Shown: positions 2,760-31,550 of the stretch, in pieces
How the letters are laid out: each line of letters begins with the position of its first letter
Position numbering within the stretch: the stretch's first letter is position 1
NCBI GenBank assembly: GCA_934149245.1
Contig: CAKPER010000001.1
Span: forward strand, 35,236 to 99,235
DNA: 64,000 bases
Direction of reading: 5' to 3'
From: an uncultured Bacilli bacterium
Lineage (GTDB): Bacteria; Bacillota_I; Bacilli_A; RF39; UBA660
The notes under the pieces: generated by a model
What the model saw: the letters and a program-made list of their open reading frames with translations, nothing else
Databases searched by the model: none
What the model was told of the DNA's origin: nothing
Made by a program: the position numbers and the translations under genes

Positions 2760-5700
2760 TTAAATTATTGATTTTTTCTTTCTGATTATTGTAAATGCTC
2801 CTGCTCCTAGGGATAAACTACCGATTACACTTGGAATAGTACTTGCCCATGAGCCAGTATTTTCTACGGTTATTTCTTTACCTGGAGTACTTGGTGCATC
2901 TGGGGTATTAGGTTGTTCTGGAGTGTTTGGAGTCTCAGGTTTATTATACATTACTACTTTGGTTGTAGTTCCATCATCTTTTACAGTGAAAGTTATTGTT
3001 TCATTACTTAATACATAACCATTTGGGGCTACTACTTCATTTAAAGTATAAGTTCCTGGAGTTAAGTTTGTTATTATATGAGGAGTATCTCCTGATGTCC
3101 ACTCGTCTATGACGTTACCATTTTTATCTTTTACTACTAATTTAGCTCCTGGTAATTCTTTACTAGTTGTAACATCTTGTTTACTAATAGATACTTTTGT
3201 TGTTGTATTTGGAGTATTTTTCATAATAACTGTATTTAATTCTTTTCCTGCTTCATCTAATAATTTTCCATCACTTGATACAGTGAATTTTATTGTTTCA
3301 TTACTTAGAATATAGCCATTTGGAGCTTTTGTTTCAGATAAAGTATAACTTCCTTCTACTAGTTCTACATAGTGAGCATTTTTATCGGTAACCCAGCTAT
3401 CTACTACTTTACCATCTTTATCTTTAATTTCTAAACTGGCTCCAGCTAAATTTTCATTAGTTTTAGCATCTATTTTAACAATTGGATATTTCTTTTGCTC
3501 GGGAGTTGGTTTCTTTTCGTTATACATAACAACTTTATCAATAGCTTTATCATCTTTATTTAATAGAGTTCCTTTAGAATCTATTTTGAATGTTATAGTT
3601 TCTTTGGATAATACATAACCATCTGGAGCTATTGTTTCAGTTAGAGTGTAAGTTCCTTCTGGTAGGTCTTTAATAACATGAGCTTCATTTGTAGATACCC
3701 ATGTATCTATAATTTTACCAGTATTGTCTTTTACTTGCAATGTTGCTCCTGGTAATTCTTTACTAGTTGTAATATCTTGCTTACTAATAGTTACATTAGT
3801 TTTTGGTATTGGTTTATTAAACATTACTACTTCTTTTAGAGTATTACCATTACTATCAGTAATTTTACCTGTTTTATCTACAGTAAATTTAATTGAATCA
3901 GTATTTAGAACATAGCCATTTGGAGCTGATACTTCGCTTAAAATATAATTTCCAGCTTCTATATTTTTAATTATATGTTCTTCTGTAGTTGAGGTCCATT
4001 CATCTATAACTACGCCTTTTTCATTTGCTAATTTTAGCTTTGCACCTGATAATTCTTTGTTAGTAGTTATATCTTTTTTACTAATTTTAATATTTTTTTC
4101 TTCATTAGGTTTATTATACATAATTACTTTATCAATAGATTTTCCAGCTTCATCTGTTAATTTACCATCTTTATCTACAGTAAATTTAATAGTCTCTTTT
4201 GATAATATATAACCATCTGGAGCTACTGTTTCAGTTAAGGTATAAGTTCCTGCTTCAATATTTTTTATAATATGAGGCTCGTTTGTAGATATCCATGTAT
4301 CTATAATTTTGTTATCTTTATCTACTACTTTTAGAGAAGCCCCAGGAAGTTCTTTTTTAGTTGTAATATCTTGTTTGCTAATTGTAATATTTTTCTCTTC
4401 ACTAGGTTTATTATACATAACTACTTTATCAATAGATTTTCCAGATTCATCTGTTAATTTACCATCTTTATCTACAGTAAATTTAATAGTTTCTTTTGAT
4501 AATATATAACCATTTGGAGCTACTGTTTCAGTTAGAGTATAAGTTCCAGCTTCAATATATTTTATAATATGAGGCTCGTTTGTAGATACCCATGTATCTA
4601 TAACTTTATTATTCTTATCTTTTACTTGTAATGTTGCACCTGGTAATTCTTTCTTTGTAGTTATATCTTGTTTGCTAATTTCAATATTTCTTTCTTTTTC
4701 TGGAGTGTTATACATAACTACTTTGTCAATAGTTTTACCATTTTTATCAGTTAGTTTGCCATTTTTATCTATTGTGAAACTTATAGTTTCTTTAGATAAT
4801 ACATATCCTTTTGGTGAGATTGTTTCACTTAAAGTATAAGTTCCTGTAGCTAATCCTCTTATTAAATGTTCTTTATCTGTAGATGTCCATTTATCTATAA
4901 CTTTACCATTTTTATCTTTAAGTTCTAGACTTGCTCCTGGTAATTCTTTATTTGTTGTTATATCTTGTTTACTAATTTTAACACTATTTTTAGTGTTTTT
5001 TAATTCTAATTTTGTTACATTAGTACCACTAGTATTTTTTGTATTACCACTAGCATCTACTGTAAATTTAATAGTTTCTTTAGATAAGATGTAGCCATCT
5101 GGTGCTGATACTTCACTTAAAGTATAAGTACCTTGTGCTAAACTTTTTACAGTATGTTCACTTCCATCTGTAGTCCATCTATCTACTTCTTTATTGTTTG
5201 AATCTGTAATTTTTAAGACAGCACCTTTAACAGCAGTCTTAGTGTCGGCATCAATTTTTACTACTTTTGGTGATTTTACGTTAGTTATGGTAATAGAGCT
5301 TACTTTTTGGCCAGATACTTTTATGTTGCCATCGTTATCTATTACAAAAGTTATTTTATTTTTGTTTAAATTATAGCCATTTGGTGCTGATGCTTCTCCT
5401 ACAGTATAAGTACCTGGATTAAGGTTTTTAATAACGTGAGTTGAACCATTAGATGTCCATCTATCTATTACTTTACCACTAGAGTTTTTAGCTTCTATTA
5501 CAGCACCTTTTAAACTAGATTTAGTATTAAAATCAGTCTTATTTACTGGCACATTAACACTAACTTTTTTATTTATTATTAATTTTGCAGTATCTTCAGC
5601 ATTTTTTACAATCTTATAAGTAACAGCCATCTTTTGATATCTACTATTACTTGGATTATAATTTTGTGATTTAATTATTTCTTTAGAGTTACTTACTTTT

Positions 5701-6410
5701 ACTTTTAAAGTTGTCTTTCCAGGTTTAATTTTAGAATCTGGAACATATACATAAATATATTTTCCACTAACTTTATAAGTTGAACCTTTTGGAGCTCCTA
5801 CTAGAGATACTTTAAATTTTTTCTCTGAGCTTGTTACTTTTATTTTTTTAGAAACATAATTATTTCCACTTTTGCTCATTTCACTTTTATCTGGACTTAA
5901 TTTTATACTTGGTCCACTAAAATTAGGCTTTGAAGCTTTCTTAGCATTAGCAACTAAAGTTCTAATTTTTTTAGCAGTTGCAGAATTACTGCTATAAACT
6001 TTGTTTCTGAATTTAGATACAGAATAAGATTTGTTCATTATTCCTTTATCTGACATATAAATCCATAAAGCAGTTTGATATATAAAGAAATCATTATTAT
6101 TTCTTACGTTTTTATAAGCTTGTTTTAAGATATAGTGCTTACCAGCATCATCAACAATATCTGCTTTCGTATATTTAATACCTGTTGATGGTGTTTTTTT
6201 AGCATATGTTATACAATATGCAAATTTTCCACCAGTAGTCTTTTTTACATGAAATGTTTGTGGATAAGACATAGGTGGATTATGATAGCTTGTACTTTTT
6301 ATTGTAACGCTGCTTGCAATGTTTTCAGCATTAACGATAGTTGTTCCGAAAACAATTGTTGCAATTATAGTAAGAATAAAACTTACTAGTAATTTAAAAT
6401 TCTTTTTCAT
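2760..6410 (-). CDS. Surface adhesin: signal peptide + thioester (TQXA/TED) domain + about 9 CnaB-type repeats + C-terminal membrane/wall anchor
   Basis: 1216 aa. Signal peptide MKKNFKLLVSFILTIIATIVFGTTIVNA. The N-terminal domain carries a Cys (KFAYCITYAK) and the QxA(L)W motif (IYQTALWIY) typical of thioester adhesin domains. Nine ~93-aa repeats follow, of the form SKQDITTxKELPGAxLxVKDKNGKVIDxWxST..H.I..L..GTYTL.E..AP.GY.LS.ETI.FTV...G...VVMYNKP (Lys...Glu...Asn, CnaB/isopeptide-like). The C-terminus is ...TPGKEITVENTGSWASTIPSVIGSLSLGAGAFTIIRKKKSII: a hydrophobic span plus a basic tail. Confidence 0.8.
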   Translation of the reverse strand: MKKNFKLLVSFILTIIATIVFGTTIVNAENIASSVTIKSTSYHNPPMSYPQTFHVKKTTGGKFAYCITYAKKTPSTGIKYTKADIVDDAGKHYILKQAYKNVRNNNDFFIYQTALWIYMSDKGIMNKSYSVSKFRNKVYSSNSATAKKIRTLVANAKKASKPNFSGPSIKLSPDKSEMSKSGNNYVSKKIKVTSSEKKFKVSLVGAPKGSTYKVSGKYIYVYVPDSKIKPGKTTLKVKVSNSKEIIKSQNYNPSNSRYQKMAVTYKIVKNAEDTAKLIINKKVSVNVPVNKTDFNTKSSLKGAVIEAKNSSGKVIDRWTSNGSTHVIKNLNPGTYTVGEASAPNGYNLNKNKITFVIDNDGNIKVSGQKVSSITITNVKSPKVVKIDADTKTAVKGAVLKITDSNNKEVDRWTTDGSEHTVKSLAQGTYTLSEVSAPDGYILSKETIKFTVDASGNTKNTSGTNVTKLELKNTKNSVKISKQDITTNKELPGASLELKDKNGKVIDKWTSTDKEHLIRGLATGTYTLSETISPKGYVLSKETISFTIDKNGKLTDKNGKTIDKVVMYNTPEKERNIEISKQDITTKKELPGATLQVKDKNNKVIDTWVSTNEPHIIKYIEAGTYTLTETVAPNGYILSKETIKFTVDKDGKLTDESGKSIDKVVMYNKPSEEKNITISKQDITTKKELPGASLKVVDKDNKIIDTWISTNEPHIIKNIEAGTYTLTETVAPDGYILSKETIKFTVDKDGKLTDEAGKSIDKVIMYNKPNEEKNIKISKKDITTNKELSGAKLKLANEKGVVIDEWTSTTEEHIIKNIEAGNYILSEVSAPNGYVLNTDSIKFTVDKTGKITDSNGNTLKEVVMFNKPIPKTNVTISKQDITTSKELPGATLQVKDNTGKIIDTWVSTNEAHVIKDLPEGTYTLTETIAPDGYVLSKETITFKIDSKGTLLNKDDKAIDKVVMYNEKKPTPEQKKYPIVKIDAKTNENLAGASLEIKDKDGKVVDSWVTDKNAHYVELVEGSYTLSETKAPNGYILSNETIKFTVSSDGKLLDEAGKELNTVIMKNTPNTTTKVSISKQDVTTSKELPGAKLVVKDKNGNVIDEWTSGDTPHIITNLTPGTYTLNEVVAPNGYVLSNETITFTVKDDGTTTKVVMYNKPETPNTPEQPNTPDAPSTPGKEITVENTGSWASTIPSVIGSLSLGAGAFTIIRKKKSII
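2960..5540 (-). repeat. Tandem ~280-bp coding repeats (CnaB-like modules of the adhesin), highly similar at the DNA level
   Basis: Near-identical DNA blocks recur, e.g. 4100-4400 vs 4390-4680. The plus-strand mini-ORFs 3109..3315, 3724..3915 and 4309..4509 all read APGNSLLVV.SCLLI because of this periodicity. Confidence 0.8.
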
Positions 6411-16333: not shown

Positions 16334-19300
16334 TTATTTGCTTTTGTTATGTTTTTGCTTTTTATAATAATCTAGATGTTTTTTTAGAACGTCAACCATT
16401 TTATAATAGCCAGTCTCATTCATATTATTAGATACAAATTCATAGTAATTATAAGTAATATCTCCATATTTTTGAGGTTCATGGTTTTCTCCAAAATCCC
16501 ATATTTTATAATCTTTCTTAAATTCAGAGAATGGCTTTATATTACCATCACTTTCTAGAGCATATTTTAAAAATTCTTGACATGCCTTAGTAAACGAGCC
16601 ACCATTTTGTAGTATCCAGTTTTCTACTCCTATACCACTTAAACCACCTTCTGGTACTAGTGAATTTTTTTGCTTATAAGCATTAGCTTCTTTTAGGAGC
16701 TTTTTAGCATAGATAATATTAGCAATTACTAGTGGATATTCTTTGGGATATTGTTTTTTGATAGAGTTTAATCTATCATTTAAAGCCATTTCTGATGAAT
16801 ACTCGACATTACTACGTTTTTGGGCTAGTGATATATCAAGATCAAAATCTTCTTCTATAGAATCTACTTTTATATTCATACCTCGAAAACGGTTATCATG
16901 GGATAAGTTATCTTTAGGATTTAAGATTTTTTTAAATTTATCTAAAAGTGTATGCTCATGTTTTGTTAATTCATTTTTTCCTATTTTTAACATATAATCA
17001 TAATCAGCGTCATTTAAAACATTAGTACCTCTAGAGGTAGAACCAGTTGGAATAAGTTCTAAAATATTACTAGATAAATCATTAGTAATAGTTGGCTCAA
17101 TTTTAAGATTAGGAATTTGGTTAAATTCTAATGTTAATATTTCTTTTATGATAGTCTCAATTACGTTTTGATTATGTTTTTGTTTTTTATTATCTTCGTC
17201 CATTTCTAATAAAATATCTTCTAACTTGTCAAAATAAATAGTATCATCAAGGATATATTTTTCTTTGTCATAATATGATAGTCCAGCCATATGAGAAGCA
17301 ATTTTTTCATATTCTTCAGGAGTAAATATTAAATTACCACTTAAATCAATTACAGGAATATAAAAGCCTTTTTTTACTATTTCAACTTTTAGAGCTGATA
17401 AATCATCTAAGTCGTTATCTTTACTATCACTTTCTAAATAATTTACGCTACCATCTTCTTTGTAAGGGTTATTTGGATCTATTTGTTTATTTTTCTTATA
17501 AATTATATAGTCTATATCAGATGATGCTATTCCAGTTCTTGCTCCCCAATGAGAGTTAAATCCTCCTTTTATAGTTTCAGAACAAAACATTTCTATTTTT
17601 TTAGGATCATATGGAACACCATCTTTGATAGCCTCATCACGAGTTATAGATATCCTAGGGTTATCTTTTTCTAAGACAAAGAAAATATTACCAAAGCCCC
17701 AACCGGTCGGAGTTCCGTTAATTGCATCATATACAGTCTTGGATTTTGCTACTTTAGTAAAGTCAGCATCTAGCTCGGTTGTGTCTGAGATGCTTTTACC
17801 TGTTATTGGTCCTAGATATTCGTTACATAAATTTCCCTCATCCAAAGAACTACCAAAGGCTTCTATAGTACCTATACATCTTAAAAAGTCCCCTTCTGCT
17901 GGAATTGTTTTCTTGTGTCTCATCTTTTCAGCTTTTAAATAATTCTTTTTATTAGTTTTATCAACATTATCTTCCATTAGATTTTTTAATTCATTAAATG
18001 ATTTTATTCCTAAAAAGTAGGCAAAATGTCTAACTATTCTATCTGGTAAGTCGTATCTATTTGTTACTTTAAACTTTTCTCTAAAATAAGTTATTTGTTC
18101 TTTTAAATCTAAGTCAGAGAGATCTTGCTCTTCTTCGTCATCTTCAAGTGGATTTATGTTTTCAGATAAAGCTTTTAGATGAGCAGTAAATGTTTTTAGT
18201 GTGTTTTTATCTTGAATAGATAAGTCTTCTAATTTTAAGTTATTATTAATTAAAGATAAATAAATATTATTACCCTTCTCTATATTTGCTAAATAATTTT
18301 TTAGAGAACGATTATTAGAATAAATTGCTATTCTTAGTAAATCATTATAAATTATTTGAAATCTCATATTTGTTTTGTTCTTTAATTCTCGCGATAGTTT
18401 CTGCATAGCTTTATTATTGGGATTAGCTTTAATTAATTCAGGAGACATTCTACTATCTGGACTGAAATCAAAAGTTCCATCTGTTAATTTTTGTGAAAGA
18501 TCAGGATACAGAATTCTAAAACACTTAAATATTTTACTAAACATTGGAATGTTATTTCTTATAAAAACATTTTCTATTTTATCTAAGCTGGCAATAGGAT
18601 TTTTAGTTTTTAATATTAATCTAGCAAAATTTGTTCGGTAATTATATAACTCTTGAGAGTTTGTTTTAGATAATTTATTTAAAACTTCGGCTATATAATC
18701 TATTTTATTTACATCAATATTATAATTAGTATTTATAATGTAATTTTTAAATTCTTCTTTTAGGCTGTTATCTTTTAGGTTTAGGTAGTTTTCTAATACT
18801 TTTAATCTAGAGTAATTAGCTTTTTTCTGATTTTTATCTTTTGCAAATAGTGGTATCAGCCATGATAGTTTTTGATCTAGGCCACAAATTATATTAGCAT
18901 CATCTATCATATCAACTAAAGATAAGTTGGTTGCAAAATCATTAAATTTAAACTGTCTATTATAAAATTTTTCTTTAATATCATCTGGTACTTTAGCCTC
19001 TAAAAATAGCATCGAATGTTTTTCACGAAATTCTTTTCTAATATTATCATTATATGTAATTCTTCCATCTATTATAGCTTTATAAATACTTTCGTCTAAG
19101 GTGTTTAAGAGGGATTTTGAGGTGATATTTTTAGCACTACTTAAATTTAGCGTAGTGAAATTTGCTATTTTTTCTAAATGATTTCCGTACGACAAAATAG
19201 TCTGAAAAGTAGATTCTTTAAAATGACTTTTCATAAGTGAAATTAAATTAACATATTTTTTTGTAGCTTCATCAAAAACTGGAAGGTGCTTAAAAAGAAT

Positions 19301-21076
19301 TTCTGGATCAATACTTTTTAGATGGTTTTGATATTTGGAATTTGCTATAACATCATCCCAATTTATGCTTCTAGAATAAAAACTTTTCTTTAATTCTTCG
19401 CTAGCATTAGCTGGTAAAAAAGCAGTAGGATAATTATTTTTAAAGTGTTTCGGTAAATTAGCTGGATATTTTTGGGGGAAGAATGTTAAATATTTATAAA
19501 AAATATCATCAAGTTTAGTCATAAGTTCATTTAAATTTGAACTGTTTGTTAAATTTAATTTATTTATTTTTATATCTTCTTTTGTAAAGCCTTGGGCTAA
19601 TACGCTGTTATTATTATTAGTTAATATAGAAAATATATCGCTATAATCACTTAGGAAATGCATGATATCATCATAACTTGCCATATTTTTTATGACAGAA
19701 TATAAATTTTTTCTATTATCTAGAGTATTAATATCTATCATTTTAAAATAACGTTCTAGACTTTTTCCTTTTAAATATTCTAAATATTCAGGATTTTCTT
19801 TTATTATTTTTGGGGTTATTTCTTTTTTATAAAAGACATTTTGTAACTCTTCTGGGGCATTTGGTGAGATAAAATAATCTTCGTTTTGTTCTCTAAACTC
19901 CCCTTTTAGCTCTTTAAAATTTAGTAATATATCTGCAACTTCACTAATAGATGAGTTAGTATATTTTAAAGTTCTTCTTAATAATTCAGCAAATTCTTCT
20001 TTGGTATATGGTTCTTTGCTAGAAGTTCCTTTAAATAAAGGCCCTTCTTCTGAAAACGGCTCTACACTAAGATGAGTTGTAAGATTCTCCATTGCTTTTA
20101 GCATTTGGCAATTATTTTTAGTGAAAAAATTATTATTTTTCTTATCAAACTCTATTATTTGTTGGAAGCCACATCTATCAATAAAATTTAGAATATTATT
20201 ATCACTAATTAGGAGATTAAAAGGAATATTGCTATTTAAAATATAATCTTCTTCTAGATTATTTAGTTCCTGTTTGATAAGAGTACTACAATTAGAAAAG
20301 AAATCTTTTACTTTAAAAGAGGAATATTTGAACAAATCTTTATATTGTTCATTTGTAAGATGCGTTCCTGTTCCCATAACAAGCTGGCCAGATATTTCTA
20401 TTAAAAGATTATCAGTTAGCGTTTGAAGATACTTTTTCTTTTCATCTTCGTTTTGGTTATTCATAGTTTTATCTATAAATTCATAAATATTCGTGCTATC
20501 TTTAGTTAAGTTTATTAGAGTTTTATAATTATTCATAAAAGCTTTTACTTGGTTGTTAGTTATATGATGAGTATTATTTTTATCATGGATTAAGCAATAA
20601 GTTAAATCTTTATCTTTGTATAACTCCCAATTTTCTATTATATCTTTTAAAGATAAAGTGCCATTATTAAATTTTAATTTTTCATTTTTTTGGTCAACAA
20701 GATCTGTAAATAATCTATCTTTATAAATGTTTTTCATTTTAGATGAATATGCTGTTGGAGGTATTTTATCTTTTATTTTTTCGTACAAAATATAATTGAT
20801 ATCTTTTTCATCTTTTGTTAATGTTTTTAATAAATCTAAACATATTGAATACTTGTTTATTAATTCCCAATCTAATGTTTTAGAATTTTTAATACCAAAT
20901 TTTTCTACTATTTTAAAATCCTTACTTCTTATACATGATAATGGTATTTTATCAATTAAATCATATTTAATAAACTCTTCAAAAGAAATATTATTTGTAT
21001 AGATTTTTTCTAATATTTCAGAAGGAACATTTAATTTTCTACCAAATAATTGGTTTTTTCTATATTTATATTTCAT
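16334..21076 (-). CDS. Giant (1580 aa) N/K-rich hypothetical protein with a C-terminal polymerase-beta-type nucleotidyltransferase (NTP_transf_2-like) motif
   Basis: About 230 aa from the C-terminus: LIPTGSTSRGTNVLNDADYDYML, i.e. h-G-S-x2-R-G-x6-D-x-D, then a third acidic strand (IKVDSIEEDFDLDIS). Upstream there are repeated PxNAxEEL..FY motifs (NAPEELQNVFYKK, ANASEELKKSFYSR). No signal peptide. Confidence 0.45.
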   Translation of the reverse strand: MKYKYRKNQLFGRKLNVPSEILEKIYTNNISFEEFIKYDLIDKIPLSCIRSKDFKIVEKFGIKNSKTLDWELINKYSICLDLLKTLTKDEKDINYILYEKIKDKIPPTAYSSKMKNIYKDRLFTDLVDQKNEKLKFNNGTLSLKDIIENWELYKDKDLTYCLIHDKNNTHHITNNQVKAFMNNYKTLINLTKDSTNIYEFIDKTMNNQNEDEKKKYLQTLTDNLLIEISGQLVMGTGTHLTNEQYKDLFKYSSFKVKDFFSNCSTLIKQELNNLEEDYILNSNIPFNLLISDNNILNFIDRCGFQQIIEFDKKNNNFFTKNNCQMLKAMENLTTHLSVEPFSEEGPLFKGTSSKEPYTKEEFAELLRRTLKYTNSSISEVADILLNFKELKGEFREQNEDYFISPNAPEELQNVFYKKEITPKIIKENPEYLEYLKGKSLERYFKMIDINTLDNRKNLYSVIKNMASYDDIMHFLSDYSDIFSILTNNNNSVLAQGFTKEDIKINKLNLTNSSNLNELMTKLDDIFYKYLTFFPQKYPANLPKHFKNNYPTAFLPANASEELKKSFYSRSINWDDVIANSKYQNHLKSIDPEILFKHLPVFDEATKKYVNLISLMKSHFKESTFQTILSYGNHLEKIANFTTLNLSSAKNITSKSLLNTLDESIYKAIIDGRITYNDNIRKEFREKHSMLFLEAKVPDDIKEKFYNRQFKFNDFATNLSLVDMIDDANIICGLDQKLSWLIPLFAKDKNQKKANYSRLKVLENYLNLKDNSLKEEFKNYIINTNYNIDVNKIDYIAEVLNKLSKTNSQELYNYRTNFARLILKTKNPIASLDKIENVFIRNNIPMFSKIFKCFRILYPDLSQKLTDGTFDFSPDSRMSPELIKANPNNKAMQKLSRELKNKTNMRFQIIYNDLLRIAIYSNNRSLKNYLANIEKGNNIYLSLINNNLKLEDLSIQDKNTLKTFTAHLKALSENINPLEDDEEEQDLSDLDLKEQITYFREKFKVTNRYDLPDRIVRHFAYFLGIKSFNELKNLMEDNVDKTNKKNYLKAEKMRHKKTIPAEGDFLRCIGTIEAFGSSLDEGNLCNEYLGPITGKSISDTTELDADFTKVAKSKTVYDAINGTPTGWGFGNIFFVLEKDNPRISITRDEAIKDGVPYDPKKIEMFCSETIKGGFNSHWGARTGIASSDIDYIIYKKNKQIDPNNPYKEDGSVNYLESDSKDNDLDDLSALKVEIVKKGFYIPVIDLSGNLIFTPEEYEKIASHMAGLSYYDKEKYILDDTIYFDKLEDILLEMDEDNKKQKHNQNVIETIIKEILTLEFNQIPNLKIEPTITNDLSSNILELIPTGSTSRGTNVLNDADYDYMLKIGKNELTKHEHTLLDKFKKILNPKDNLSHDNRFRGMNIKVDSIEEDFDLDISLAQKRSNVEYSSEMALNDRLNSIKKQYPKEYPLVIANIIYAKKLLKEANAYKQKNSLVPEGGLSGIGVENWILQNGGSFTKACQEFLKYALESDGNIKPFSEFKKDYKIWDFGENHEPQKYGDITYNYYEFVSNNMNETGYYKMVDVLKKHLDYYKKQKHNKSK

Positions 21077-25656: not shown

Positions 25657-25744
25657 GGTATATCTTCCACCTCTCTCCTAGTCTTTATAAGAATATGATA
25701 CTTTATTATTATTGTTTTGTAAACATTTTGAATTAAATTTGACA

Positions 25745-25790
25745 TTAAATAGAAAAAGAACTAACAAATGATTAATTTTATTAGTTCTTT
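25745..25790 (-). terminator. Rho-independent terminator at the 3' end of the split LysM-amidase gene
   Basis: Perfect 10-bp stem AAAGAACTAA (25755-25764) / TTAGTTCTTT (25781-25790) with a 16-nt loop; on the minus strand it is followed by TTTTCTATTT. Confidence 0.6.
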
Positions 25791-25801
25791 ACTGTTATGG
25801 T

Positions 25802-26403
25802 ACTAATAATTCATCCCCTATATTTATTAAGTTTGAAGTTAAATTGTTTAAACTTTTTATTTTATCTACTGTTGTATTATATTTTTTAGCAATACTGTAT
25901 AAGCTATCTCCTGATACTACTTTATAAGTTTTTGTGCTAGATGTATTGCTAGGAAGTTTTAATATTTGACCTATACTTAGAATTTTTGAATCTAAGTTAT
26001 TTAAACTTTTTATTTTATCTACTGTTGTATTATATTTTTTAGCAATACTGTATAGGTTATCTCCTGATACTACTTTATAGGTTTTTGTACTAGATGTATT
26101 GGTGTCATTAGGAAGTTTTAATATTTGACCTATACTTAGAATATTGGACTCTAAGTTATTTAAACTTTTTATTTTATCTACTGTTGTATTATATTTTTTT
26201 GCAATACTGTATAAGCTATCTCCTGATACTACTTTATAAGTTTTGACATTAGAATTAGTTTCTTCTGTATTACTAGATGAAGTTGGGATTTTTAAACTAC
26301 TACCTATAGTTAGATTATTAGAAGTTAGGTTGTTATATGCTTTTAGTTTATCTACAGTAGTATTATATTTTCCAGCTATACTATATAAAGTATCACCTGA
26401 TAC
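25802..26403 (-). CDS. 3' segment of a split gene: four-and-a-half LysM repeats (C-terminal part of the Amidase_3-LysM protein)
   Basis: No start codon of its own, so absent from the ORF track. Minus-strand translation reads (S)GDTLYSIAGKYNTTVDKLKAYNNLTSNNLTIGSSLKIPTSSSNTEETNSNVKTYKVVSGDSLYSIAKKYNTTVDKIKSLNNLESNILSIGQILKLP...IGDELLVP and stops at 25802-25804. It is in frame with the 5' segment at 30078..30868 through the shared codons TCA-GGK-GAT (S-G-D). Confidence 0.75.
25830..26400 (-). repeat. Tandem ~150-bp coding repeats (LysM modules)
   Basis: Four near-identical DNA blocks (ttgaagttaaattgtttaaactttttattttatctactgttgtattatattttttagcaatactgtataagctatctcctgatactactttataag...). They are coding, not CRISPR. 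Confidence 0.8.
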
Positions 26404-26420
26404 AATTTTTATGCAACATT
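26380..26420. other. Left junction (attL-like) of the intervening element
   Basis: ...ctatataaagtatcaCCTGATACaatttttatgcaac... The host LysM sequence diverges after CCTGATAC (26396-26403); the element arm GATACAATTTTTATG is an inverted copy of the right-end arm. Confidence 0.65.
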
Positions 26421-27974
26421 TTTAAATGTAAATATAATATCTATCGTTTTATCTTGATAGATATAAATCTTTTCAATTAAATTTATAATTAATTCTCTAG
26501 TTGGATTTTCAAGTGATAAAAATTCATTTATATATTTTTCTATTTGTTTGTTATCTATTTTATTTTCTTCTATTTGTTCATTTTTAAGATTATCAATTTT
26601 CTTTTTATTATTATCTATTTCAGTTTTAATATTTTCACTTACTCTTAAGTATTGTTCTTCATCAATAATACCTTTTAATCTATCCATATATGTTTTATCT
26701 AGACTTTCAGTTAATTTATTATTTGTTATCTCTAAACTTTCAATTTGTTTTTTTATCTTTAAACTATTATCTTCAAACTTTATATTATTAATAGATTCTT
26801 TTATCTTGTTTTTATCTAAATACTTTTTACATACATCCCTTATATTATCTAAAATAACATTTTCTAATACTTCATAATTATTTGTATGGGTTGTACAGAC
26901 ATGATATTTTGAATATGTTCTATAATAATCACAAGTAGTATAACTTCTTTCTGTCTTATTTTGGTATCTAATTGTAATTCTGTGTTTACAATCCCCACAA
27001 TATAAAAGTCCATCTAATAAGTAAAATCTTTTTTTCTCTGGCCTTTTAACATTTTTAGGTAAAAGTGTTTGTACATAATTAAATGTACTCTTGTCAATAA
27101 TTGCCTTGTGTGTGTTTTCTACTATTATGTAATCATCTGGACTATTTTTAACCGTTTTCTTTAGTTTATAATTAATCTTTTTATTCTTACCTTGTACTGC
27201 ATCACCTGTATAAATTCTATTAGTTAAAATTGCCTTTATAGTAGTATCTACCCATACTCCATATTCTTGTGATATACAATTATTATTTATACATTTTGTA
27301 TTCCATATATAGTTATAATAAGATGCTGGTGTTTTTATTTTTCTTTTAGTAAGTTCTTGAGCAATATAATGATATGTATTACCTTTAAGTGCTAAATCAA
27401 ATATTAATTTAACAACACTTGCTTGCTCAACATTCACTACTAAATGATTCTTATTAGTTGGATCTTTCATATACCCAAATGGACATCTTCCTGATACATA
27501 TAAGCCATCTTTCATTCTTGAATGCAAACTACTTTTAATTTTTTTAGAAATATCTTTGGCATACATATCATTCATTATGGCTTTAAAAGGTGCAATATCA
27601 TTATTTGTATTGTCTATAAAAGTATCTATACCATCATTAATAGCAATATATCTAATATTATTATTTGGAAAAAATTTTTCTATTAATTCTCCAGTACCTA
27701 TATAATCTCTACCTAATCTAGACATATCTTTAGTAATAATCATATTGATTTTGCCTAATTCAATATCTTTCATCATTCTCTTAAATGATGGTCTATCAAA
27801 ATTAGTTCCAGAAAATCCATCATCTACATATTCATCAACTACTATATAATTGTTTTCTTTTACATATTGGTTAAGTAAACTTCTTTGACTAACAATACTA
27901 TCAGATTCTACATTCCCATCATCTCTTGATAATCTTATATAAAGTCCTACTTTAAAACTACTATTCCCTACCAT
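26409..27974 (-). CDS. Large serine recombinase (SpoIVCA/SprA/TnpX-type site-specific recombinase)
   Basis: 521 aa; N-terminal resolvase catalytic domain VGLYIRLSRDDGNVESDSIVSQRSLLNQY with the nucleophile Ser; recombinase domain; Cys-rich zinc ribbon (YCGDCKHR...CDYYRTY...HVCTTH); C-terminal coiled-coil (KKIDNLKNEQIEENKIDNKQIEKY). The stop lies 5 bp from the element end. Confidence 0.9.
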   Translation of the reverse strand: MVGNSSFKVGLYIRLSRDDGNVESDSIVSQRSLLNQYVKENNYIVVDEYVDDGFSGTNFDRPSFKRMMKDIELGKINMIITKDMSRLGRDYIGTGELIEKFFPNNNIRYIAINDGIDTFIDNTNNDIAPFKAIMNDMYAKDISKKIKSSLHSRMKDGLYVSGRCPFGYMKDPTNKNHLVVNVEQASVVKLIFDLALKGNTYHYIAQELTKRKIKTPASYYNYIWNTKCINNNCISQEYGVWVDTTIKAILTNRIYTGDAVQGKNKKINYKLKKTVKNSPDDYIIVENTHKAIIDKSTFNYVQTLLPKNVKRPEKKRFYLLDGLLYCGDCKHRITIRYQNKTERSYTTCDYYRTYSKYHVCTTHTNNYEVLENVILDNIRDVCKKYLDKNKIKESINNIKFEDNSLKIKKQIESLEITNNKLTESLDKTYMDRLKGIIDEEQYLRVSENIKTEIDNNKKKIDNLKNEQIEENKIDNKQIEKYINEFLSLENPTRELIINLIEKIYIYQDKTIDIIFTFKNVA

Positions 27975-28171
27975 TAATTACAACTCCCTTCCATTTGGGA
28001 ATAATGAGTATGATTACATGGTAGCTCCCTATCTAAATAATTGCAAGTCATGTTCAATTTCTTTTGTAATTCTATTTTCAATACTTCAGTTATTATTTCA
28101 TTTAAAGATTTAGAATTATCTTTAAACTTTAAATTAACTTTGTATTTAACCATAGAGTTTAATACCTCCAA
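27974..28171 (-). CDS. Small ORF (65 aa) translationally coupled to the recombinase start: candidate recombination directionality factor or regulator
   Basis: Good RBS (GGAGGTATTAAACTCTATG); its stop overlaps the recombinase ATG; 4 Cys in the C-terminal half (CNYLDRELPCNHTHYSQMEGSCN). No family assignable from sequence. Confidence 0.3.
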   Translation of the reverse strand: MEVLNSMVKYKVNLKFKDNSKSLNEIITEVLKIELQKKLNMTCNYLDRELPCNHTHYSQMEGSCN

Positions 28172-28610
28172 TTAATTCTATGGTTTTAATTTTTGTAATA
28201 TTACTTGGTATGATTCTCACATACCCAATAATATTACTTAATTTCATAATCCTCCTTATTCATAAACATCATCTCCTTTTACTTGGATGATACCTCTCTT
28301 AAAATGTATGAGTCAAGTCATTTACTATAGCAAGTTTTGTCTATCATCCCAAAATGATTCATAATTTAATAAAATATGAAATAGCAGGATAAGAAGATGG
28401 TGTAATAGCACGCGCTTTTCCTTATAAAATAAGGACTTGTGTATACACCATTCTTATTTCGTACTTACGAAATTCAACCTACAAAATAGATTTATATATA
28501 GGATGATTATTAAACAAGTCTTTATATTATAAGACATTAGAACAATAAAAAAACATCCTACTATCTAATTTTCGTTAGATTTTATAGGATGACTTTTTTA
28601 TTTATTATTA

Positions 28611-28832
28611 TTATTCATTTAAGTACTTTTCCATTATTGATGCTATTAATGCTTTAGATTCAGGCAGTAACTCATTTATTTTATAAGGATAACTTGTATC
28701 TGCTTTACTAATAATGGTTTGTTTTAATTCTTCTGGTATTTTATCAATTAAATCTTTGCTAAGCCTAATTAATGTCATATAGACTTCTGTATATATTTTT
28801 CTTTCTCTATCCATACTATAAACTCCTTCCAT
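28611..28832 (-). CDS. Hypothetical 73-aa protein (element cargo)
   Basis: ORF overlapping the 3' end of the 380-aa cargo gene; a bidirectional hairpin plus T-run (28551-28605) follows it. Confidence 0.3.
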   Translation of the reverse strand: MEGVYSMDRERKIYTEVYMTLIRLSKDLIDKIPEELKQTIISKADTSYPYKINELLPESKALIASIMEKYLNE

Positions 28833-29958
28833 TACTTCTAGATGGAAACTGACTAAGCATTTCTTGAGCCTTTAATAAAAATTCCATATCTAAATCATTT
28901 AATTTTCTTATACAATCCTGTATCGTCATTTTCCTTTGTTTTGAAGCTTCGCTCACTTTAAATCTAGGTAATATCGGTGATAAATTAACACATGATAAAA
29001 CTTCAGGATTAACAACCTTATCACAACAGATGTTATCTCCCATTAACATACTACCTCCCTTAACTATGTCAGAAAATATATAATTTTCATTTGAATAAAG
29101 GGAATTATCACTCATTGATGAAAAATAGAAACTTTTCATTCTATTTATATCATCATTATCTTCCAACGAACTAATTGGTACAAATGCTAAATAAGGTTCT
29201 GTATTGCCAAATTTATTCCAACATTTATTAAAAAAATCCAAAATTTCTTTTCTATCTTCTTCACTCATGTTATTTTTTTCAATCAATTTTGTTATTGTTA
29301 AAAGACAGGTTTCATAATCTCTGTTTGCATAACCATGTTTATTCTCTTCTGGTACCAATCCCCATGCATAGCAATGGTTGCCTCCACAGAATTGTCCAAA
29401 CCATTCAGGGGAATCAGCATAATGTAACATACTGTGTGGATTACTATCGTAAAACCAACCATTTTTTTCATTTTTGATATCTAATGTTCCCCAACCTAAA
29501 GGATTATCATTACCATATTTACTATAAATTGAAGCAATATGCATAAGTTCCATCTTATTTTCTTGTGAAGATTGTGAAAATCCAAGTCCATATTTCATAT
29601 TATTTTCTATTGCCTTACTATTTCCAGCATGAAAAACATAACCATTTCTAACAAAATTTTCAAAAGCATAACTAATAATAGCTTCTATTTTACTATCAAT
29701 TTCATGATGTGGAATTCCTATTTTATCAGCAATTCTTAATTTTAAAAATTGAATTTGTTGTTTTTCATCAGTTAAGTGCATATATTCTTCAATGCCTTCT
29801 GATTCTTTAAACAAAACACAATAGCCAATCATTCTAGAAAAATTTTTCTCTTGCAATTCTTTTTCATCATATGTCATTTCTCTTTTTTTCATAAAATAAT
29901 ATTGGATTAAAGCATTATTTAAGCATTCAGATATAATTTTTCCAATATCAATATTCAT
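28816..29958 (-). CDS. Hypothetical 380-aa cytoplasmic protein (element cargo), His/Trp/Cys-containing, no recognisable family
   Basis: Long ORF with codon usage like the host; contains NPLGWGTLD, HYADSPEWFGQFCGGNHCYAWG and GDNICCDKV segments. No TM or signal peptide. Confidence 0.4.
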   Translation of the reverse strand: MNIDIGKIISECLNNALIQYYFMKKREMTYDEKELQEKNFSRMIGYCVLFKESEGIEEYMHLTDEKQQIQFLKLRIADKIGIPHHEIDSKIEAIISYAFENFVRNGYVFHAGNSKAIENNMKYGLGFSQSSQENKMELMHIASIYSKYGNDNPLGWGTLDIKNEKNGWFYDSNPHSMLHYADSPEWFGQFCGGNHCYAWGLVPEENKHGYANRDYETCLLTITKLIEKNNMSEEDRKEILDFFNKCWNKFGNTEPYLAFVPISSLEDNDDINRMKSFYFSSMSDNSLYSNENYIFSDIVKGGSMLMGDNICCDKVVNPEVLSCVNLSPILPRFKVSEASKQRKMTIQDCIRKLNDLDMEFLLKAQEMLSQFPSRSNGRSL

Positions 29959-30054
29959 TTTATCATCTTCTTCCTTATTATAAATTAATACAGTTTTATT
30001 CTATACATTTTAATTATACCATGTTTCTTTATTATTTTATTAAAAAATACTCAT

Positions 30055-30095
30055 TATTCCCCATAAAAATGGTATCCCCTGATACTACTTTATAA
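30055..30095. other. Right junction (attR-like) of the intervening element
   Basis: ...tcattattccCCATAAAAATGGTATCCCCTGATACtactttataag...; the host LysM sequence resumes at CCTGATAC (30078-30085). Confidence 0.65.
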
Positions 30096-30868
30096 GTTTT
30101 GACATTAGAATTAGTTTCTTCTGTGTTACTAGATGAAGTTGGGATTTTTAAGCTACTACCTATAGTTAGATTATTAGAAGTTAGGTTGTTATATGCTTTT
30201 AATTTATCTACAGTAGTATTATATTTTCTAGCTATACTATATAAAGTATCACCAGATTTCACTTTATAATATATTCCATTAGTTGGCTTGGAAGATGCAA
30301 TATTTAAATAGCTTAAAATAGCTTCTACTACAGCATCACCTAAATCACTTACATTATTGTTTATGATATTAAAATCATTAGTATTATTAGGGTTACCATA
30401 ATATATAATTAGAGTTTCATTATTTTTTGTATCCCTAATTAAAGGATTATAATCTAAGGAAGTATCACTGGGAAGTCTTCTTTGGTAATATTTATTTACT
30501 TTTATATTTTTAGATTTAAAACTGTTTGCAAGTGTTTCTGCTAGATTTCTTGTATTTCTGAGAGCATATACTATTTGAATTCCTTCTTCATCAGGAGATA
30601 AAGCATTTGATATTACTATCACATCATTTCCACTTCCGTAAAGGGATTTTATTTTATTAGTTCTATCTTCTATACTTAGAGTTTCATCATTATTTCTGGT
30701 TAAAGATACAGGAATATTTTTTTCTTTTAGTTTATCATAGATATATTTGCTAATTTCTAAATTAAAATCTTTTTCTATCAAATTATCTTTTGTTTTCCCT
30801 ATATCATCACCACCACGATATGGATCTATTACGATCTTTTTAGAGGATATTCGATCAAATTCACACAT
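30078..30868 (-). CDS. 5' segment of the split gene: degenerate Amidase_3 (MurNAc-L-Ala amidase-like) domain + first LysM repeat + start of the second
   Basis: The ORF track shows 30032..30868 because translation reads through the junction into the element (..KTYKVVSGD|TIFMGNNEYFLIK*). The N-terminus MCEFDRISSKKIVIDPYRGGDDIGKT aligns to the Amidase_3 IVIDPGHGGxDxGA motif but with His->Arg. LTRNNDETLSIEDR is conserved. The SIHANA motif is replaced by VISNAL, so the second His is lost. No signal peptide. Confidence 0.7.
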
Positions 30869-30914
30869 TTTATCACCACTTAATTATATGATTAGGTAGG
30901 ATAAAATATGGCTA

Positions 30915-31550
30915 TTATTTAGTAACATCTAATTTGTTTATTTTTATTCCTAATTTTACAAATTTCTTTTCATATTCTGTAGGAATATTATCTTGAAGGT
31001 ATTTAGGGTTTTGATATAAATCATTTGTATAATAGTTTATATTGTAGCCATAACTTTCTAGAGATTCTTTGGAATAATTAAACAAGTCTATGTTATCAGT
31101 TTTCATAATGATATGTTCTTTTGCTTTAAAAATTTTACTATATTTTTCTAGAAATATTTTGCTTGTTAATCTTCTTTTTTCGTGTCTTGCTTTAGGCCAT
31201 GGATCGGAAAAATTTAGGTATATAGTATTTATTTCTTTAGCGAATACTTCATCGATATTTAAAGCATCCATTCTAATTAATTTTAGATTTTTTAGCTCCA
31301 ATTCATTAGATTTTTTGATAGCTCTTACAATAACACTATCAAATTTTTCTATACCTATAAAGTTTATATTTGGATATTTAATGGCATTTTCGATAATAAA
31401 ATCTCCTTTTCCCATACCTATTTCAATATTTATTGGATTATTATTTTCAAAAATGCTTGCCCAATTTCCCTTATAATTAGTCGGATTACTTATAAAATAT
31501 GTTCCTTTTTCAATTATTTCGTTGGCACCTTTTACATTTTTTAAACGCAT
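30915..31550 (-). CDS. trmB: tRNA (guanine46-N7)-methyltransferase TrmB
   Basis: 211 aa; SAM-binding IEIGMGKGDF; conserved LNFSDPWPKARH motif. Confidence 0.85.
   Translation of the reverse strand: MRLKNVKGANEIIEKGTYFISNPTNYKGNWASIFENNNPINIEIGMGKGDFIIENAIKYPNINFIGIEKFDSVIVRAIKKSNELELKNLKLIRMDALNIDEVFAKEINTIYLNFSDPWPKARHEKRRLTSKIFLEKYSKIFKAKEHIIMKTDNIDLFNYSKESLESYGYNINYYTNDLYQNPKYLQDNIPTEYEKKFVKLGIKINKLDVTK

Follow-up and report, generated by a model that had tools for sequence, protein, structure and literature searches.

An Amidase_3-LysM gene of an uncultured Bacilli bacterium split in frame by a probable LysM-targeting serine-recombinase element

In a contig of an uncultured Bacilli bacterium (UBA660) the gene for an Amidase_3-LysM protein is split in frame by a 3.7-kb inserted element that encodes a large serine recombinase (LSR). 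The question raised by this locus is whether the element is excised during sporulation to rebuild the gene, as in the skin-like elements and as an earlier note on this DNA had proposed, or whether it is a mobile element for which LysM-coding DNA serves as the landing site. The window, i.e., the whole stretch of DNA analyzed, comprised 64,000 nt of contig CAKPER010000001.1, with transcription from the minus strand throughout. The element probably represents an undescribed kind of serine-recombinase integrative element that targets a LysM motif and carries swappable, often defensive cargo, and it splits here a probable late-sporulation LysM gene.

The split gene and the inserted element

The 5' part of the host gene (30078-30868, minus strand) encodes a degenerate Amidase_3 domain, LysM1 and the start of LysM2 (...KTYKVVSG) according to the list of open reading frames (ORFs) and Pfam. 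The frame opens with ATG at 30868, runs through ...KTYKVVSGD and continues for 13 element-encoded codons (TIFMGNNEYFLIK) to a stop codon at 30032-30034, inside the element. As it stands, the product has 278 aa. The 3' part (25795-26395, minus strand) encodes the remainder of LysM2, LysM3-5 and the stop codon, with four LysM stretches recognized by Pfam. This stretch opens at 26400 (TCA GGT GAT ACT...), encodes TLYSIAGKYN... and three more LysM repeats, and ends with TAA at 25795-25797 and not at 25802, where the earlier note had placed the end. A terminator hairpin of the host gene with a perfect 9-bp stem followed by a T run was read from the sequence at 25752-25789 on the same strand (AAGAACTAA...TTAGTTCTT).

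Both parts contain the common core GTATCAGG-K-GATAC (30085-30072 and 26403-26390, minus strand), in which the codons TCA-GGK-GAT lie in the same frame, as had been noted before. Joining 30868-30078 with 26395-25795 in silico gave 1392 nt and a 463-aa ORF with Amidase_3 and five LysM repeats, and the claim that the two parts can be rejoined to one five-LysM gene was thereby confirmed. The join at 30078 and 26403 that had been given originally was discarded; it is out of frame and counts the 8-nt core twice.

The inserted element comprises 3,682 bp (26396-30077, minus strand) when its ends are set by a crossover at the central GG. The attachment site attL (30062-30086) consists of the host left half and the core GTATCAGG (30085-30078), followed by the element left end GGATACCATTTTTATG..., while attR (26389-26413) consists of the element right end CATAAAAATT, the core (26403-26396) and the host right half TGATACTTTATATAG. 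The two stretches form a terminal inverted repeat of 25 nt with 84% complementarity. The attP reconstructed from them reads CATAAAAATTGTATC-AGGG-GATACCATTTTTATG, and 14 of 15 arm positions are symmetric about the central GG. Half-site symmetry about a central dinucleotide is the usual layout of serine-integrase sites.

The LSR gene (26409-27974, minus strand) encodes 521 aa, and its stop codon lies 5 nt away from the core. Pfam identified the domains Resolvase (PF00239), Recombinase (PF07508) and Zn_ribbon_recom (PF13408). The inverted-repeat termini and the recombinase close to one of them were both found as had been claimed. The protein matched the integrase family PHROG 95 (E = 1e-105), and the closest solved catalytic domain was that of TnpX of Tn4451 (E = 2.5e-28). 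The orientation of all ORFs of the element is that of the host gene, also in agreement with the earlier note. The locus thus shows the inverted half-sites around a non-palindromic central dinucleotide in attP and the short identity with attB by which LSR elements are recognized, and, judged by the LSR domains and the in silico join, it has an element-encoded recombinase together with att sites that restore the ORF precisely.

Among full-length homologs, those nearest to the joined protein were uninterrupted and had 405-407 aa. They included the gene of two conspecific contigs, L092 and L093, which match the window with 97-98% identity along about 13 kb and lack the DNA of the element; an uninterrupted copy in relatives, which the earlier note had proposed to look for, was therefore at hand. 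The gene order scpA-scpB-pdp-trmB-[gene]-89 aa-PP2C-pgm is common to the window and both contigs. Since the empty allele is conspecific, the insertion is strain-variable within one species, and the presence/absence polymorphism with an intact empty site is a further mark of LSR elements.

Relatives, backbone and cargo of the element

Hundreds of close relatives of the LSR were present in metagenomes. With one genome per species scanned, at least 445 relatives were found. The best 80 were from metagenome-assembled genomes (MAGs) of uncultured gut 'Bacilli / Tenericutes / Erysipelotrichaceae / Mycoplasmatota' from humans, rabbits, mice and ruminants. About 70 of the 80 LSRs were 77-95% identical to that of the window and mostly ended with ...TAAAAWTGTATCWGG, followed in frame by SGD[TS]L[YW]xIA. 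At about 55 of these 70 loci the LSR stop codon was followed by AAAAWTGTATCWGG, which continued in frame as the start of a LysM domain (SGD[TS]L[YW]xIA...), and the attR junction TAAAAATTGTATCWGG|NGAY recurred at about 55 loci. At most of the other loci an extra gene intervened, and the same junction followed after a few hundred bases. At the opposite side the left end GATACNATTTTTATGGGGAATAATGAG was seen at more than 45 loci, where the host sequence Y-x-V-x-x-G was followed by GATACNATTTTTATGGGGAATAATGAG-TAA.

Both ends could be mapped for 37 elements, which ranged in size from 2.9 to 7.9 kb. The attB consensus of the 37 non-redundant sites was tTATAc.GT.aAA..aGG|aGATAc.tTaT..agtATtGC, and attP was nearly invariant among them. 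Because the architecture of attL and attR was repeated at 37 non-redundant loci, the junction pattern is not due to chance.

Amidase_3-LysM genes made up about half of the mapped 5' parts. The other targets were, by Pfam, GH25-LysM, Peptidase_M23-LysM and PG_binding_1-LysM genes and genes for LysM-only proteins, including a small membrane-anchored one; one GH25-LysM target had a signal peptide and belonged to a GC-richer host. LSRs that were 84-95% identical sat in Amidase_3-, GH25-, M23-, PG_binding_1-LysM and LysM-only genes, i.e., in more than three target clusters. Within the amidase genes the position of the insertion varied among the LysM repeats, the first and the last included, which indicates independent events. 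Where the LSR was 87-95% identical to that of the window, the host amidase domain was just 35-46% identical and there was no common synteny. The sole syntenic relative, L064, had identities of 78% for TrmB, 81% for Pgm and 66% for the amidase, and of 82% for the LSR. As LSR identity far exceeds host-gene identity, the element evidently moves horizontally.

In the IMG/VR contigs L094 and L095 (7164-11600) an element with an LSR of 87% identity splits an M23-LysM gene behind two holin-like genes at a prophage end, and this target is probably a phage lysis gene. A phage origin of the family was considered and rejected: no phage record contained an LSR of more than 60% identity, and the two IMG/VR matches represent insertion into a prophage gene and not a phage integrase. 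Tandem arrays were seen in L038 (11512-13108) and L053 (4029-5372), in which an intact element and an attP-type junction are followed by a decayed copy of 1.3-1.6 kb. The decayed copies retained both ends, with the recombinase gene in fragments. In all these respects the family behaves as horizontally mobile and site-specific, its site being a domain-coding motif.

The conserved backbone of the element consists of a structured element, a sigmaA-type promoter, an optional ribbon-helix-helix (RHH)-like gene, a 33-aa and a 59-aa ORF, the LSR at the right end, and a left end of about 30 bp. The Cys/His-rich 59-aa ORF (27974-28153, minus strand) is conserved, and its stop codon overlaps the LSR start (TAATG). 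It was located directly upstream of the LSR at nearly all loci, with 52-95% identity, and is a candidate accessory or directionality factor. The likewise conserved 33-aa ORF (28146-28247, minus strand) has a strong ribosome-binding site, overlaps the start of the 59-aa ORF and was called as a gene in L001; in-frame indels occurred in it among relatives. Within it lies a hairpin of 18-25 nt (28188-28244, minus strand), in which substitutions of the relatives mostly preserve pairing via G-U. This hairpin may be a signal in the translation or processing of the recombinase operon.

Further upstream, the window has a 12-codon mini-ORF, MMFMNKEDYEIK (28234-28272, minus strand), where relatives encode MYMRRFNLYLPEELFERIKLL... 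According to the alignments it is the remnant of an RHH-like gene that is intact in 'type B' relatives. An RHH-like protein of 50-67 aa was present between the promoter and the 33-aa ORF in L023, L030, L033, L037, L040, L041, L046, L071, L072 and others; Pfam gave no match for it, and the assignment to RHH was made by eye. With this gene cut to a 12-codon remnant, the window copy may have lost a regulator. The promoter scan placed a sigmaA-type promoter-like site of the recombinase operon at 28287-28316 (minus strand; TTGACT-N18-TATCAT). TTGACT-N17/18-TAnnAT preceded the operon of 33-aa ORF, 59-aa ORF and LSR in all aligned relatives, with conserved hexamers and a variable spacer. Promoters were assigned by motif, and phylogenetic conservation alone was relied upon, because a sigma-70 consensus scan gave 57 sites versus 49 expected in this AT-rich DNA.

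The structured element, of about 200 nt with seven helices, is located at 28309-28506 (minus strand). It separates the cargo from the recombinase operon and precedes the -35 hexamer. In an alignment of 39 non-identical sequences (A2), 92% of the cells formed a standard pair versus 37-48% when the partner was slid by 1-3 columns, and 126 cells were changed on both sides versus 14-58 in the slid controls. In helix 3 all six pairs covaried. On the recombinase strand G-U pairs exceeded A-C pairs (143 versus 40, or 64 versus 39 without the invariant helix 5). A search of Rfam with positions 25700-31000 at E <= 1 gave just two chance eukaryotic matches and none for the structured element. The covariance model R1 scored 199 bits in the window and also matched upstream of a clade of LSRs with 55-59% identity (L083-L090). 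As this clade has non-LysM flanks, the structured element belongs to the recombinase module rather than to the target.

A long-range pairing of the 5' sequence ATCATCCT with AGGATGAT was unsupported, the 5' side varying without compensation, and the reading of the invariant TTATCCTGC as a DnaA box was rejected, as 3 of 9 positions mismatch. The structured element may be transcribed, separately or within a longer RNA (as a leader or a small RNA), or it may be a single-stranded-DNA signal, e.g., an origin of transfer (oriT) used in trans. The latter would account for horizontal spread in the absence of a relaxase gene.

Between the left end and the structured element lies the variable cargo slot. 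In the window it contains c380 (28816-29958, minus strand; 380 aa) and c73 (28611-28832, minus strand; 73 aa), an entry of the ORF list that overlaps the end of c380. The model of c380, which is without a Pfam family, had a pLDDT (predicted local distance difference test) of 87, and its top structural matches were proteins of the ADP-ribosyltransferase (ART) fold (Tpt1, pertussis and diphtheria-type toxins, DarT); an ART-like fold is thus predicted, and the protein has an invariant FH..NS motif. c73 occurred together with c380 in L047 (96% identity) and L057 (79%) and is possibly its partner or immunity protein. As judged from the model, the pair is a candidate toxin/immunity or anti-phage module. 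That the window, L047 and L057 have the pair in common despite differing LSR identity indicates that the cargo is mosaic. The 59-aa, 33-aa, 380-aa and 73-aa ORFs and the RHH-like protein had no family in Pfam, PHROGs or PADLOC. A terminator-like hairpin after the cargo (28547-28591, minus strand; CATCCTA...TAGGATG followed by T7) was read from the sequence; it was not called by the consensus scan because its stem has few G-C pairs.

Across the family the cargo was highly variable and modular, and no cargo gene was conserved among the elements. PADLOC recognized type II restriction-modification (R-M) systems with two methyltransferases and an endonuclease in at least 7 elements of relatives, and also AbiU, an Old/AriA/Gabija-like ATPase-nuclease and Shedu.

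From these data the following mechanism is proposed. The LSR would recombine a palindromic attP (CATAAAAATTGTATC-AGGN-GATACNATTTTTATG) with LysM-coding DNA, in which the stretch for the domain start (Y-x-V-K-x-G|D-T/S-L-Y/W-x-I-A) would serve as attB, and the crossover would occur at the GG of the Gly codon. This GG would fix the polarity of the sites, so that each insertion would be in frame and co-oriented with the host gene, and the left end of the element would add a short tail (GD-TIFMGNNE) that ends in a stop codon. In the window the element would have entered LysM2 of a sigmaE/K-type, non-catalytic Amidase_3-LysM gene, and recombinase-mediated excision would give the 463-aa ORF back. 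The housekeeping-type promoter of the element and its small accessory proteins, rather than the sporulation programme, would set the timing of excision. As cargo, the ART-fold protein and its small partner would form a toxin- or defence-type module.

The host gene and the timing of excision

The host gene was described in the earlier note as a mother-cell-type gene, and the promoter motifs and the lack of a signal peptide on its protein agree with this. A sigmaE-like motif (ATATT-N14-CATATAAT; 30883-30909, minus strand) was assigned by motif just upstream of the ribosome-binding site and is kept in L092 and L093; a count of this motif over the whole window, both strands included, gave 2 matches versus 3.8 expected in shuffles. 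At the same position a strict sigmaK motif (AC-N16/17-CATAnnnTA) was found in 10 of 14 homologs, i.e., in 8 of 11 complete interrupted and 2 of 3 further uninterrupted genes, while the third uninterrupted homolog had a sigmaE-like motif instead. Upstream of other ORFs in the same loci the sigmaK motif occurred 14 times in 1014 (1.4%), which gives a binomial P of about 2e-13, with the restriction that homologous promoters are not fully independent. The carriers were L001, L013, L023, L038, L039, L066, L071, L072, L114 and L115, with the motif 40-50 nt upstream of the amidase-LysM genes. Its -10 element lies 4-5 nt from the Shine-Dalgarno sequence, which would leave a very short and odd leader. 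As far as can be judged from these motifs, the host gene is probably a mother-cell or late-sporulation LysM gene.

An active amidase is improbable. Both zinc-binding histidines of the Amidase_3 domain are lost, with DPYRGG for D[AP]GHGG (30810-30822, residues 15-20) and, at the second site, SNAL for SNHL (30603-30611, residues 86-90), and with these zinc ligands replaced the host protein is probably not catalytic. About 60% of the amidase family were degenerate in the same way and about 35% retained the catalytic residues, which suggests a conserved non-catalytic Amidase_3 subfamily.

Spore genes that had been noted in the window were recovered by Pfam, namely, SpoVAD, SpoVAC/AEB, GerM and a PRC-barrel protein. 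A SleB/CwlJ-type Hydrolase_2 gene adjoins the amidase-LysM gene in L001/L002 (8073-8495), L114 (4594-5022) and L115 (4693-5118); the window has no such neighbour. This arrangement hints at a conserved spore cell-wall gene pair.

According to the skin-like explanation the element would be kept in the germ line (the forespore), the LSR would excise it in the terminal mother cell, and the gene would be rebuilt upon sigmaE/sigmaK activity. The precise in-frame split with the LSR at the element end, the spore genes, the protein without a signal peptide, the sigmaE-like and sigmaK motifs at the host gene and its homologs, and the Hydrolase_2 gene beside homologs all speak for this explanation, and skin, SPbeta, skinCd and the non-phage gin element are precedents (PMC4191935, PMC5025042, PMC5595907). 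Moreover, as the recombinases of SPbeta and skinCd are constitutive (PMC5595907), a sigmaA promoter on the LSR is compatible with it.

However, the element in the window had no sigmaE/K motif on its sense strand, and upstream of the LSR operon a sigmaE motif occurred in 1 of 64 relatives and a sigmaK motif in another 1 of 64, the remaining 62 having neither at the motif level. A sigmaE reading of CATACATT in the spacer of the LSR promoter was ruled out, since the sequence is not conserved in relatives. Judged from the motifs, neither the recombinase nor any conserved small gene showed a sign of sporulation (sigmaE/sigmaK) control. The sole conserved small genes are co-transcribed with the LSR, which leaves no separately regulated directionality factor, and the terminator-like hairpin behind the cargo parts host-driven transcription from the LSR operon.

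The distribution of the family also argues against a developmental role. The insertion is strain-variable, and those of the relatives are independent and not inherited. Some non-amidase targets have sigmaA-type promoters (TTGACA-N17-TATAAT in L016), which means that the family is not confined to mother-cell genes, and a secreted GH25 protein and a prophage lysin are also among its targets. The earlier note had named the same element at unrelated sites in relatives as the finding that would speak against a developmental rearrangement, and this is essentially what the insertions into GH25-, M23- and PG_binding_1-LysM and LysM-only genes represent. Of the original proposal, an LSR-bounded element whose precise excision rebuilds the ORF was retained, but nothing links this excision to sporulation, the LSR operon being of sigmaA type. 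The skin-like explanation is therefore considered rather unlikely.

A variant of it would unite both properties. In this 'portable skin element' a mobile, defence-carrying LSR cassette would reside in late mother-cell LysM genes and be excised there at no cost to the host, possibly with the structured RNA and the small ORFs sensing the sporulation state. This variant is regarded as unlikely.

The LysM repeats next to the insertion bear on a third explanation, a fixed or dead insertion. Here the truncated 278-aa product with one LysM repeat may still work, and the element would be lost only by homologous recombination of the flanking LysM units, giving a four-LysM allele. The empty allele has indeed four LysM repeats and is exactly one unit shorter, the window containing one additional 174-nt unit. 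As a consequence of this extra unit, the element is flanked by two LysM units of 97% identity, seen as direct repeats of 185 nt (26217-26401 and 30073-30257), and at all four diagnostic differences the empty alleles match the downstream unit. The deletion of the RHH-like gene here and the decayed copies elsewhere would also fit.

Several histories are consistent with the repeat numbers, however. A five-repeat ancestor may have given the empty allele by homologous deletion, a four-repeat ancestor may have given the window allele by recombination between copies at neighbouring repeats, or the five-repeat allele may simply be a repeat-number variant. The four-LysM allele is equally well explained as an ancestral, never-occupied site. 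In addition, the LSR, the 59-aa and 33-aa ORFs, both att sites and the promoter are intact and near the family consensus, so that a fixed or dead insertion appears quite improbable. A misassembly or binning artefact that joined a mobile element to a repeat-bearing gene is hardly credible, for although assembly is difficult for LysM repeats and multi-copy elements and MAG contigs are common among the relatives, in-frame junctions with matching att halves recurred independently across studies and hosts, in dozens of assemblies, and the flanks are 97-98% identical to contigs with the empty site.

A LysM-targeting integrative element thus remains the probable explanation, and some observations weigh against it. 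A search for excised circles by the attP pattern in the metagenome collection gave a single junction, on the 1.4-kb contig L113, for which a circle and a tandem array are indistinguishable. No mobilization or transfer gene that would account for horizontal spread is conserved, and no relaxase was matched among the genes of the window in Pfam and PHROG, such as the Mob/tnpZ gene that the Tn4451-type mobilizable transposons have together with its oriT (RS_A). Finally, mother-cell-type motifs are found in the host gene family that makes up about half of the mapped targets. It is proposed that insertions accumulate in late-sporulation LysM genes because most LysM repeats are there and these genes are cheap to disrupt. 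Two very large ORFs were also present in the window on the minus strand, at 16334-21076 (1580 aa) and at 2760-6410 (1216 aa, with a signal-peptide-like N-terminus).

Implications and comparison with known systems

If LysM-targeting integration holds true, the landing site is the conserved DNA of a domain start, which would give the family numerous sites in each genome, open a very wide range of hosts to it and force its insertions to be co-oriented and in frame. Such a target would broaden what is known of how serine integrases choose their sites and provide a natural integrase with a defined attB of about 40 bp. The family is probably a vehicle for defence genes (R-M, Abi, Old-like, Shedu) in uncultured gut Bacilli, and its uncharacterized cargo, e.g., the ART-fold pair, is a source of candidate new defence systems. 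The frequent disruption of sigmaK-type LysM genes provides a testable candidate for regulated gene integrity (RGI) in sporulation, and the covarying element of about 200 nt is a structured nucleic acid, as yet uncatalogued, that is associated with serine recombinases. Should the element be excised in the mother cell and yet be mobile, a programmed developmental DNA rearrangement would be transferable across dozens of uncultured gut spore-formers.

Among the known elements, gin of Bacillus cereus ATCC 10987 (GirC/GirX; PMC5595907) is similar in being a non-prophage element with a serine recombinase by which the small sporulation gene gerE is interrupted in frame. The att sites of gin are also an imperfect inverted repeat around a short common core, and its cargo includes a restriction-modification system (PMC5595907). 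However, gin has 31 genes, three recombinases and a single target gene, whereas the element described here has 3.7 kb and one LSR and targets a domain-coding motif in many genes. Excision of gin is sporulation specific, with girC and girX expressed in sporulation (PMC5595907), while the LSR promoter was of sigmaA type by motif. With skin (SpoIVCA), SPbeta (SprA/SprB) and skinCd (CD1231/CD1234) the element has in common that a mother-cell-type gene would be made whole by precise LSR excision. These three are prophages or prophage remnants of 14-135 kb with one dedicated gene (sigK, spsM), and either their directionality factor or their recombinase is separately sporulation-regulated; here, there are no phage genes, and the small ORFs are co-transcribed with the LSR.

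Tn4451 and Tn4453 (TnpX) resemble the element as small (about 6 kb) non-phage elements with the LSR at one end, excision as a circle, and sites that resemble the element ends around a central dinucleotide. Unlike them, the element has no Mob/TnpZ gene, and the C-terminal domain DUF4368 was not among the Pfam domains of its LSR. Serine transposons use loosely AT-rich targets, in contrast to the one motif of about 40 bp found here, which encodes a domain start and is always entered in frame and in the orientation of the host gene. For multi-targeting LSRs (TndX/TnpX-like), one LSR cluster occurs in more than 3 target gene clusters, and DUF4368 is present in 63% of the clade (Durrant et al. 2022, PMC10083194).

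No LysM or amidase target of an integrase was found in the literature searched, in accordance with the claim that such a target had not been reported, and neither LysM nor amidase is mentioned in the text of the study on RGI islands (Mageeney et al. 2020, PMC7192596). These islands are nevertheless comparable, as an integrase clade repeatedly disrupts the same protein domain in independent events, which is the criterion for candidate RGI used in that study. The RGI islands affect one gene family per clade (PMC7192596), whereas the elements described here disrupt the LysM domain across several unrelated gene families.

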